Source: Acidimicrobiales bacterium (GTDB lineage: Bacteria > Actinomycetota > Acidimicrobiia > Acidimicrobiales > CATQHL01). Taken from it: DNA of 64,000 nt. The position numbers and the translations under genes were made by a program. Below are positions 42,758-44,782 of the stretch, in pieces. The stretch is taken from assembly GCA_965116465.1 (NCBI GenBank), contig OZ220687.1, positions 1,894,321 through 1,958,320 on the forward strand, given 5' to 3'. The notes beneath the pieces are model-generated. The model was not told the origin of the DNA. It saw nothing but the letters and a program-made list of their open reading frames with translations, and did not search any database. Positions within the stretch are counted from its first letter, which is position 1. Every line of letters begins with the position of its first letter.

Positions 42758-44782
42758 CTATCCGGCGACGCCGCGGATGCGTTCCACCCAGCCGGCGAGG
42801 TCGGGGTTGGCGTCATACAGCGGGCCGACGGCATCGCGGAACGGGGCCTTGTCGACCTCGGTGATGCTCCAGCCCTGGTTGGAGAGTTCGGATATGTAGC
42901 CCGCGTCGTCCTCGATGGACCGCTGCCGCTGATGCGCCACCGCCTCCAGAGCGGCGCGCTTCACCAGGCGTTGACCCTCGGACCCCAAGCGTTCCCACAT
43001 GTCCTGGGAGCCGACCATCATCAGGGCGGCGTAGATGTGCTCGGTGAGCGAGAGGTGCTCGAGGGGGGTCTCGTAGTACTTCTGGGTGACCGCGGCGAAG
43101 ATCGGCGCCTCGGTGGCGTCCACGACGCCGTTCTGCAGCGACGTGAAGATCTCCGGGCCCGGGATGGGCGTCGGCGTGGCCCCCAGGAGTTCCATGGTGT
43201 TGATGTAGAGGTCCGATTCGGGGACGCGGATCTTGATGCCGTTGAGGTCCGCGGGGGTGTTGATGGGCCGCGGCGCGGTCATCATCGAGCGGAACCCGAA
43301 CTCGCCGAAGGCCAGTCCCTTCAGGTCCACGCCGTCCAGCAGCGCCAGCAGGTCCTCACCGACGGGTCCGTCGAGGGTGGCGAAGACGTGGTCGCGGTCA
43401 TCGAAGAGGTACGGCAGGTTCAAAACGCCGAACTCGGACACGAACGATTCCATGATTCCTGCCAGGACGACGGCGATGTCGACCGAGCCGATCTGGGCGC
43501 CCTCGACGAGCTCGCGCTCGCCGCCGAGCTGCCCGCTCGGGAACACCTCAACGGTGATCTTGCCCTGCGATCGCTCCTCCACAATCTCCTTGAACTTCAC
43601 CGAGGCGATGTCGGCGAACCCGTCGGGCGCACCCGAATGGCCGACACTCAACGTCAACTCCGGCAACGCCTCCACGTCGGTGGCCGGGGACGTGCCGCCC
43701 ACCACGCCGCGGATGCGTTCCACCCAGCCGGCGAGGTCGGGATTGGCGTCATACAGCGGGGCGACGGCGTCACGGAACGGCGCCTTGTCGACCTCGGTGA
43801 TGCTCCAGCCCTGGTTGGAGAGCTCGGCGACGTAGCCGGCGTCGTCCTCGATGGACCGCTGACGCTGATGCGCCACCGCGTCGAGGGCCGCCTGCTTGAT
43901 GATCGCCTGTCCCTCAGGACCGGCGCGTTCCCACATGTCCTGGGAGCCGACCATCATCAGGGCGGCGTAGATGTGCTCGGTGAGCGAGAGGTGCTCGAGG
44001 GGGGTCTCGTAGTACTTCTGGGTGACCGCGGCGAAGATCGGCGCCTCGGTGGCGTCCACGACGCCGTTCTGCAGCGACGTGAAGATCTCCGGGCCCGGAA
44101 TGGGCGTCGGCGTGGCCCCCAGGAGTTCCATGGTGTTGATGTAGAGATCCGATTCGGGGACGCGGATCTTGATGCCGTTGAGGTCCGCGGGGGTGTTGAT
44201 GGGCCGCGGCGCGGTCATCATCGAGCGGAACCCGAACTCGCCGAAGGCCAGTCCCTTCAGGTCCACGCCGTCCAGCAGCGCCAGCAGGTCCTCACCGACG
44301 GGTCCGTCGAGGGTGGCGAAGACGTGGTCGCGGTCATCGAAGAGGTACGGCAGGTTCAAAACGCCGAACTCGGACACGAAGGACTCCATGATCCCTGCCA
44401 GGACCACGGCGATGTCCACCGAGCCGATCTGTGCGCCCTCGACGAGTTCACGCTCACCGCCGAGCTGCCCGCTCGGGAACACCTCAACGGTGAATCGGCC
44501 TTCGGTGCGTTCCTCGACGAGTTCCTTGAACTTCACCGAGGCGATGTCGGCGAACCCGTCGGGTGCGCCCGAATGGCCGACACTCAACGTCAACTCCGGC
44601 AACGCCTCCACGTCGGCCGGCGCCGGGGGCGCGGCCGGCTCGGCGGGCGCCGGATCGGGTGACGGTGACGCGGCCGGAGCCGGCTCGGGCGGGGCCGGAC
44701 TTGCGGTCGGGGAACTGTCCTCGCTTCCGCAGGCGCCCGCGACGAGGGCGAGGGCAAACAGTAGGAATCCGATCTTCCGCAC
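42758..44782 (-). CDS. dctP: TRAP solute-binding lipoprotein with TWO tandem DctP domains (674 aa)
   Basis: GTG 44782 behind GAGGAGG; lipobox LVAGAC; Pro/Ala linker; twice VEVFPSGQLGGERE...GIKIRVP...LQNGVVD. Confidence 0.92.
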   Translation of the reverse strand: MRKIGFLLFALALVAGACGSEDSSPTASPAPPEPAPAASPSPDPAPAEPAAPPAPADVEALPELTLSVGHSGAPDGFADIASVKFKELVEERTEGRFTVEVFPSGQLGGERELVEGAQIGSVDIAVVLAGIMESFVSEFGVLNLPYLFDDRDHVFATLDGPVGEDLLALLDGVDLKGLAFGEFGFRSMMTAPRPINTPADLNGIKIRVPESDLYINTMELLGATPTPIPGPEIFTSLQNGVVDATEAPIFAAVTQKYYETPLEHLSLTEHIYAALMMVGSQDMWERAGPEGQAIIKQAALDAVAHQRQRSIEDDAGYVAELSNQGWSITEVDKAPFRDAVAPLYDANPDLAGWVERIRGVVGGTSPATDVEALPELTLSVGHSGAPDGFADIASVKFKEIVEERSQGKITVEVFPSGQLGGERELVEGAQIGSVDIAVVLAGIMESFVSEFGVLNLPYLFDDRDHVFATLDGPVGEDLLALLDGVDLKGLAFGEFGFRSMMTAPRPINTPADLNGIKIRVPESDLYINTMELLGATPTPIPGPEIFTSLQNGVVDATEAPIFAAVTQKYYETPLEHLSLTEHIYAALMMVGSQDMWERLGSEGQRLVKRAALEAVAHQRQRSIEDDAGYISELSNQGWSITEVDKAPFRDAVGPLYDANPDLAGWVERIRGVAG
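42768..44616. repeat. Direct repeat of ~913 nt (42768-43680 and 43704-44616; period 936 nt = 312 codons) forming the two DctP domains
   Basis: Near-identical DNA over most of its length; amino-acid differences in a few patches (LVEERTEGRF vs IVEERSQGKI; RAGPEGQAIIKQAALD vs RLGSEGQRLVKRAALE; YVAE vs YISE; VAPL vs VGPL). Confidence 0.95.

Follow-up and report, generated by a model that had tools for sequence, protein, structure and literature searches.

Introduction

TRAP (tripartite ATP-independent periplasmic) transporters are portrayed as having one free receptor, itself a single unit, for one monomeric QM permease. According to a 2025 paper (PMC12344293), the receptors are 300-350 amino acids (aa) long and "invariably solely composed of" a single unit with two lobes. 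Dimeric TRAP receptors include TakP as well as the lactate-binding protein of Thermus thermophilus and a protein from Thermotoga maritima (PMC5812351, PMC1839085). In the receptor HiSiaP, Arg147 is the selectivity-filter, carboxylate-binding arginine (PMC4646407), and residues D58, S60, and E172 are critical for docking (PMC9352664). Here we analyze a receptor gene in a 64,000-nt stretch (the window) of contig OZ220687.1, the genome of an actinobacterial sponge symbiont assembled as a single contig of 3.53 Mb (GCA_965116465.1). The gene encodes a lipoprotein with two DctP domains; at 674 aa and two units, the protein falls outside the published size range and single-unit layout.

We consider it probable that this protein is a lipid-anchored solute receptor of a DctPQM transporter with two independently folding domains, and that the domains stem from an old duplication and have been kept alike by conversion. 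The tandem layout is common to about 20 species of sponge-associated Acidimicrobiia, which form two clades (A and B). A full-text literature search, which leaves out most subscription journals, returned no description of tandem DctP receptors, in agreement with a first-pass annotation of the same DNA that knew of no characterized TRAP equivalent. When 1.84 billion cluster representatives were searched, the best 150 included one tandem protein, which represents this very cluster; distant DctP subfamilies fall below that list. Repeated TRAP heads are probably recurrent in nature yet uncharacterized.

Gene and protein layout

The open reading frame (42758..44782, minus strand) begins with GTG and ends with a TAG stop at 42758-42760. 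An alternative, longer frame of 729 aa reaches 44947; we chose the start at 44782 since every orthologue begins with MRK or MRR. The leader is MRKIGFLLFALALVAGAC, which we take to fit the PROSITE-style lipobox pattern, and residues A17 and C18 do not vary among 13 orthologues, so the protein is predicted to be a lipoprotein. Stalks of the orthologues are rich in P, A, T, and E and are similar in length, with different sequences. No membrane domain follows the signal peptide, and the partner proteins are DctQ and DctM.

The N- and C-terminal units (hereafter N and C) form an in-frame tandem repeat with a period of 936 nt, joined via ...GGTSPAT/DVEALPE; the junction peptide in the window reads ...RIRGVVGGTSPAT followed by DVEALPELT. 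The protein scores 513.7 bits against PF03480 (cut-off 23.4) and 443 bits against TIGR00787 (cut-off 175), each over two stretches. Position 42758-44782 thus encodes two complete DctP domains in one 674-aa lipoprotein, as the first-pass annotation had read it.

The AlphaFold model has a mean pLDDT of 90.3 and a pTM of 0.57. Its pLDDT drops below 50 only in the linker (model residues 306-310). Long helices are modeled at residues 225-267 and 544-579, and each domain is predicted to have the two-lobed fold. In Foldseek, every PDB match covers one domain, with TMt values of 0.88-0.93 to 4pdh, 4pdd, and 4nq8. The low pTM and the disordered linker point to two DctP domains of ordinary fold whose placement relative to each other is not confidently predicted. 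Unit residue R151 is at least 90% conserved across 39 aligned sequences, among them DctPs with 21-35% identity, and it lies in a tract that is identical in both units. It corresponds approximately to R147 of HiSiaP, mapped by a 5-residue offset of a phmmer alignment to 2cey.

Differences between the two units and selection

The N and C units differ at 63 of 918 nt (93.1% identity). These differences fall within 48 codons, 32 synonymous and 16 non-synonymous, so the proteins differ at 16 of 306 residues (94.8% identity), where 15-20 had been estimated in the first pass. Codons 79-230 carry two silent changes only, leaving the central 152 codons protein-identical, and the remaining differences are in codons 16-78 and 231-306. 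The binomial probability of finding two or fewer of the 32 synonymous changes in codons 79-230 is 1.5e-7, which bears out the earlier impression that the differences are patchy and lie near the domain ends. Placed on the secondary-structure elements of the AlphaFold model only, the 16 substitutions sit at the end of helix 1 and start of strand 2 (32-41), in the lobe-spanning helix (231-263), at position 285, and at position 305 in the tail. Most are conservative (L/I, T/S, R/K, I/V, and D/E), and all are outside the central tract.

The dN/dS comparison of the two domains, which the first-pass annotation had proposed as a check, gives an omega of 0.14 in the window; orthologous omega is 0.05-0.12 for N and C domains alike. 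These codon comparisons demonstrate purifying selection on both DctP domains, with the same conserved residues kept. One related locus differs. In L021 (positions 7926-10535, CBDCBK010000010.1), a 50-residue BKACE fragment comes directly after the tandem gene; dctQ, dctM, and the genes that would follow have been deleted. Omega between its N and C units is about 0.45 in all segments. On this evidence L021 is an orphaned receptor under relaxed constraint and a natural control, and the loss of dctQM together with the raised omega is consistent with selection contingent on an intact transporter.

Proposed mechanism and alternative functions

The receptor would be lipid-anchored to the membrane through Cys18 and the Pro/Ala stalk, with two complete DctP domains that fold independently on a short flexible linker. 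The tandem arose by in-frame duplication of the whole 312-codon domain unit. Both heads may bind the same carboxylate ligand; their near-identity (94.8%, and 100% in a sister species) argues for this. Either head may dock on a single monomeric DctQM. One anchor would then present two receptors, with a higher local receptor concentration and a higher capture rate near the permease. We infer that the benefit of two heads resembles that of the tethered tandem domains of GlnPQ, with equivalent rather than specialized heads.

It is also conceivable, if rather unlikely, that the near-identity of N and C is itself maintained as useful, with tethered equivalent receptors taking turns at, or passing ligand to, a monomeric elevator-type permease. 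If true, the tethered equivalent pair would be an undescribed mode of receptor tethering for secondary transporters, and the stoichiometry and docking cycle of TRAP transporters could be tested with a natural series of single-, double-, and triple-head receptors.

The first-pass annotation had suggested that the differences near the domain ends affect docking to DctQM. The docking residues D58, S60, and E172 of HiSiaP map to approximately unit positions 63, 65, and 177 (by a fixed phmmer offset), and these are the same amino acids in both units. The two units are 100.0% identical in L006 and 99.8% identical in L004, so the end differences are dispensable in the window's clade, and we do not retain the suggestion. 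The same observations bear on a broader division of labor, in which the heads would differ in specificity or affinity, as do SBD1 and SBD2 of GlnPQ, or only one head, the membrane-proximal or the distal, would dock while the other captures ligand. In its favor, the C-terminal third of the unit in clade B, which includes the hinge-spanning helix and the C-terminal helices, has diverged between N and C (dN 0.12-0.18, omega 0.2-0.4), and tethering geometry differs between the two domains. We nevertheless think a division of labor improbable, as the domains of L004, L005, L006, and L007 are 99-100% identical and no difference is required there, the mostly conservative substitutions of the window spare the protein-identical tract that holds R151, and the approximate docking positions agree.

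A covalent pseudo-dimer, in which fusion would lock the domains back to back, as in the TakP dimer, and create a functional interface or a relay channel between the two sites, appears less plausible still, and we give it little weight. The linker is short (about 7-12 residues), and some TRAP receptors are dimers (PMC5812351, PMC1839085). The model predicts no confident packing between domains, its pTM being 0.57 despite a pLDDT of 90 and its linker disordered. Moreover, the closest solved chains are about 300 residues long (4pdh, 4pdd) and align end to end with one unit, which would leave no room for an extra swapped C-terminal helix; 4pdh is 301 aa long, and in the model the helix at 292-302 is followed by the linker. 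Entries of the TakP type are absent from the 60 best sequence matches.

Age of the duplication and concerted evolution

Concerted evolution of repeats by gene conversion is known, for example, in rRNA operons and tuf genes. In every tandem orthologue of the window gene, N and C domains are 78-100% identical within the protein, whereas the same domains compared between the two clades share 57-65% protein identity, with dS of about 1. Carriers whose proteins are 56-65% identical to that of the window still have domains that are 85-100% identical within each genome. At the nucleotide level, N and C are 85.5-100% identical within genomes and 65-69% identical between clades. Identity is mosaic, as tracts of 100% stand beside tracts of 72-87% in one gene, and the positions of the tracts vary by genome. 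In L004, L005, L006, and L007, which belong to the window's own clade, the units are 99-100% identical.

The unit was divided into thirds for segment trees. The central segment pairs the N and C domains of the same genome. In the tree of codons 210-296, clade B's 15 N domains group together, separate from the C domains, as one clade (SH-aLRT 99). This orthology of N with N and C with C across 15 species places the duplication before the clade-B radiation.

Silent sites in the window agree with this pattern. N versus C dS is 0.023 in the center and about 0.38 at the ends, and orthologous dS for the same center is 0.19-0.27 in comparisons with the two nearest species. Since the center falls far below the orthologous value, homogenization reaches silent sites and reflects recombination, not selection at the protein level. 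Taken with the mosaic tracts and segment trees, these values demonstrate, on sequence grounds, that the N and C units evolve in concert through intragenic gene conversion or unequal recombination, with the center overwritten repeatedly.

The leftover differences between N and C in the window are, judged from their nearest relatives, old haplotypes and not new mutations. At the 3' end, both units of L004 match the window's N unit (90-91% identity), and both units of L007 match its C unit (90-92%). These two haplotypes are 16-19% apart; the window keeps both, and L004 and L007 have each fixed one. At the 5' end, the N unit of the window groups with L007 (95%). Two histories would explain this: the ancestor of the three species had distinct N and C ends, one of which became fixed in each sister species, or lineages exchanged an inner block.

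In the window's gene, the inner block (3' end of the N unit and 5' end of the C unit) leans toward the L004 type, and the outer blocks lean toward the L007 type. One exchange of about 936 nt with crossovers in the identical centers would fit this pattern.

Clade A has the junction motif RIRGVVGGTSPATDVEALPE, and clade B has RIRAVSPSGAVDVSLLPE. The two are recognizably alike; neither the leaders of N domains in clade B nor the leader of the single-domain L023 protein contains the peptide. A motif common to both clades points to one founding event, and we lean toward one gain of the duplication over several. The single copy in L023 is explained equally easily by reversal through recombination between the repeats and by a sister position.

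The first-pass annotation had offered recent duplication or ongoing gene conversion. Conversion is borne out by the mosaic tracts and segment trees; a recent date is contradicted by the spread over about 20 species in two clades and by the shared junction motif. The form of the idea without any conversion, in which duplications occurred recently or independently lineage by lineage, is hard to credit. It would account for the 85-100% nucleotide identity of N and C within a genome, and it can draw on the unresolved branching of L023 described below. It does not account for unit boundaries that are identical everywhere and a motif common to both clades, for a C-terminal third in clade B that is N/C-orthologous over 15 species while the center groups by genome, for 100% tracts adjoining 72-87% tracts in one gene, or for two 3'-end haplotypes some 16-19% apart in the window, of which L004 and L007 fixed one each.

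Read depth and independent assemblies

The sequencing runs that bear the locus are derived from sponges. In run X21, the 456-nt central unitig shared by the two copies (42989-43444 = 43925-44380) has a depth of 112.6, about 1.5-1.75 times to about twice that of the flanks; single-copy flank contigs have depths of 60 and 68.6, and copy-specific unitigs have depths of 50-80. Run X20 is of low depth and has the same ratio (8.4 versus 4.8-6.5). A unitig from X22 (43569-43719) spans the junction between the N and C copies without a mismatch. The depth pattern is the opposite of that expected for two half-abundance strains collapsed in tandem, and depth therefore supports two true copies.

The layout also recurs in independent assemblies, which is a stronger argument than depth against misassembly. 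We found 34 full-length tandem orthologues in the protein collection. Of 23 related loci in species-representative genomes, 20 have at least two domain copies, and closed chromosomes of 2.6-4.1 Mb account for several of these. Beyond the assembly of the window, 20 assemblies have the tandem layout, including closed HiFi chromosomes. The first-pass argument against a simple assembly duplication is upheld by the read-depth check, the junction-crossing unitig, and these 20 assemblies.

An assembly artefact that joined two strains' versions of a single-domain dctP into a tandem can be dismissed almost with certainty: the genome is metagenome-derived, near-identical 936-nt repeats are hard to assemble, and Logan contigs break within the repeat, but copy-specific unitigs are near flank depth with the shared center above it, the junction unitig is continuous, the 20 other assemblies include closed chromosomes, and the N and C thirds separate into their own clades in 15 species.

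Weighing the evidence

Several points weigh against an old tandem receptor kept alike by conversion. Copy number can be read from unitig depth only roughly, and the assembly itself may derive from the same sample as the best runs. A tree of DctM and the AtuA-like protein leaves L023 in a trichotomy with both tandem clades, and its outgroup, L024, is on a very long branch; one duplication with a reversal and two duplications are both formally compatible with the placement of L023. The tandem-dctP operon is patchy, occurring in 3-4 of 18 species representatives of the window's genus and missing even from closed genomes. The model comes from a single AlphaFold run with 39 aligned sequences, so the domains may yet have a fixed interface. 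The C-terminal third of clade B resists homogenization, with the dN and omega values given above, and may reflect a division of labor. Protein production, lipidation, and ligand binding are predictions from sequence. In metatranscriptome run X25, the one RNA run in which the locus occurs, contig depth is flat (about 9-10) over genes on both strands, with nothing within the repeat, which is compatible with DNA carry-over.

Carriers and genomic neighborhood

Carriers were located by a pattern scan of genome contigs. Nearly all are metagenome-assembled genomes of sponge-associated Acidimicrobiia, including 'Candidatus Spongiisociaceae'; the exception is L024. Among 201 species representatives of the order (200 besides the window genome), we found no other carrier. 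The presence of the tandem operon in so few species of the genus marks it as an accessory trait, either frequently lost or moved between sponge symbionts.

The receptor gene heads a long co-directional operon (34283-44782, minus strand) that continues with dctQ, dctM, the AtuA-like gene, small genes, and genes for acyl-CoA dehydrogenase (ACAD) and SDR proteins. Pfam assignments near the locus are AtuA, ACAD, SDR, P450, and acyl-CoA synthetase, the last two encoded divergently. Synteny is constant: a divergent P450 gene, then one or two dctP units, dctQ, dctM, and the AtuA-like gene. By tblastn, the AtuA-like gene is syntenic in all orthologous loci, single-domain ones included. Downstream dctQ and dctM are kept in 21 of 23 related loci; L021 is without both. 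Coordinates are collected in Table 1.

Table 1. Coordinates and supporting evidence for the receptor gene and its neighbors in the window
Feature	Position	Strand	Evidence
Shine-Dalgarno sequence GAGGAGGA, 6 nt upstream of the GTG start	44789..44796	-	read directly in sequence
Signal peptide with lipobox MRKIGFLLFALALVAGA/C, aa 1-18, Cys18 predicted to be lipidated	44729..44782	-	translation, orthologue alignment
Pro/Ala-rich low-complexity stalk, 38 aa (aa 19-56)	44615..44728	-	translation
N-terminal DctP unit, 312 aa (aa 57-368), including linker GGTSPAT at 43679-43699	43679..44614	-	PF03480 and TIGR00787
C-terminal DctP unit, 306 aa (aa 369-674)	42761..43678	-	PF03480 and TIGR00787; AlphaFold
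Homogenized central tract of N unit, codons 79-230, holds Arg151 in GIKIRVPES	43925..44380	-	2 synonymous differences in 456 nt
Homogenized central tract of C unit, codons 79-230, holds the equivalent Arg (aa 519 of 674)	42989..43444	-	sequence and shared unitig
dctQ, small TRAP membrane subunit, 183 aa	42158..42709	-	PF04290, E 1.6e-20
dctM, large TRAP membrane subunit, 427 aa	40862..42145	-	PF06808, E 1e-102; TIGR00786
AtuA-like gene, directly downstream of dctM	39402..40865	-	PF07287; tblastn synteny
Cytochrome P450, divergently transcribed	44872..46158	+	PF00067; conserved neighbor

Two related loci encode single-domain receptors. L023 encodes a 363-aa lipoprotein that is 74% identical and has the same synteny. 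The orthologue in L024, from a low-GC genome, is 319 aa long and 64% identical, with the same order of dctQ, dctM, and the AtuA-like gene. DctQ and DctM in both loci equal those of the window in length, so the membrane part was not remodeled when the receptor doubled. The L024 contig (CACFAY010000031.1) is filed as a SAR324 single-cell genome; either the operon occurs outside the Acidimicrobiia or the single-cell genome is mislabeled.

Some relatives have unusual forms. L005 (positions 8100-10816 of OZ241841.1, a Ca. Spongiisociaceae chromosome) has three DctP units in series, the first bearing the signal peptide. The 5' two-thirds of this first unit are 100% identical to the others, and its 3' third has at least six short frame-breaking deletions. 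The consequence is a two-domain frame without a signal peptide, which may reflect decay after unequal crossover or a consensus artefact. L026 (positions 8001-9413 of OZ241390.1) has an N unit that lacks its 5' part and begins at unit residue 147, the signal peptide and stalk are absent, and the upstream P450 frame runs in; this tandem gene is probably a deletion-derived pseudogene. Two relatives in the protein database (P0033 and P0034) have an odd leader, ...VACW.... Elsewhere in the window (49982-51886, plus strand), a 634-aa binding protein of the ATP-binding cassette (ABC) type has a long N-terminal extension, with its SBP_bac_1 domain (PF01547) starting at residue 263.

Significance and comparison with known systems

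The natural double receptor, the single-domain receptors of L023 and L024 in the same operon context, and the degraded or possibly three-copy variants make up a ready-made comparison. With these, the effect of a second head on capture, docking, and transport could be addressed in a secondary transporter; it has so far been studied only for ABC importers such as GlnPQ. The gene is also a clean bacterial case of concerted evolution within a single gene. The carriers are uncultured sponge symbionts and the adjoining catabolic operon is uncharacterized; the ligand may therefore lead to a nutrient derived from the host.

Canonical DctP receptors (TC 2.A.56; HiSiaP and the DctP of R. capsulatus) are the nearest relatives. 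Each half of the window protein is the same full domain, with the conserved arginine and linkage to dctQ and dctM. The nearest solved chains are 4pdh, 4pdd, 4p9k, and 4nq8, and the two-lobed fold with a long spanning helix is shared (TMt 0.93 to 4pdh). Canonical receptors have a single domain, whereas here two domains stand in one polypeptide behind one lipoprotein signal.

The concerted evolution of the two units is like that of rRNA operons and tuf genes in that copies resemble each other more within one genome than across species, homogenization extends to silent sites, and tracts are mosaic. It differs in that conversion acts between two halves of one receptor frame and in that a segment escapes homogenization in one clade.

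The helix-swapped dimer of TakP (PMC1839085) likewise has two binding sites per receptor particle. The TakP dimer is non-covalent and forms via an extra C-terminal helix; the window protein is joined covalently head to tail, with no sign of an extra helix and no fixed interface predicted.

GlnPQ of Lactococcus lactis and other Gram-positives (PMC8025302) shares with this system serial receptor domains, a single-membraned bacterium, and one translocator. The likely benefit, a high local concentration of receptor, is alike in both, and the analogy goes no further than this working principle. The domains of GlnPQ are fused to an ABC permease and have distinct specificities and affinities, whereas the heads of the window protein are near-identical, lipid-anchored, and serve a monomeric elevator-type secondary transporter.

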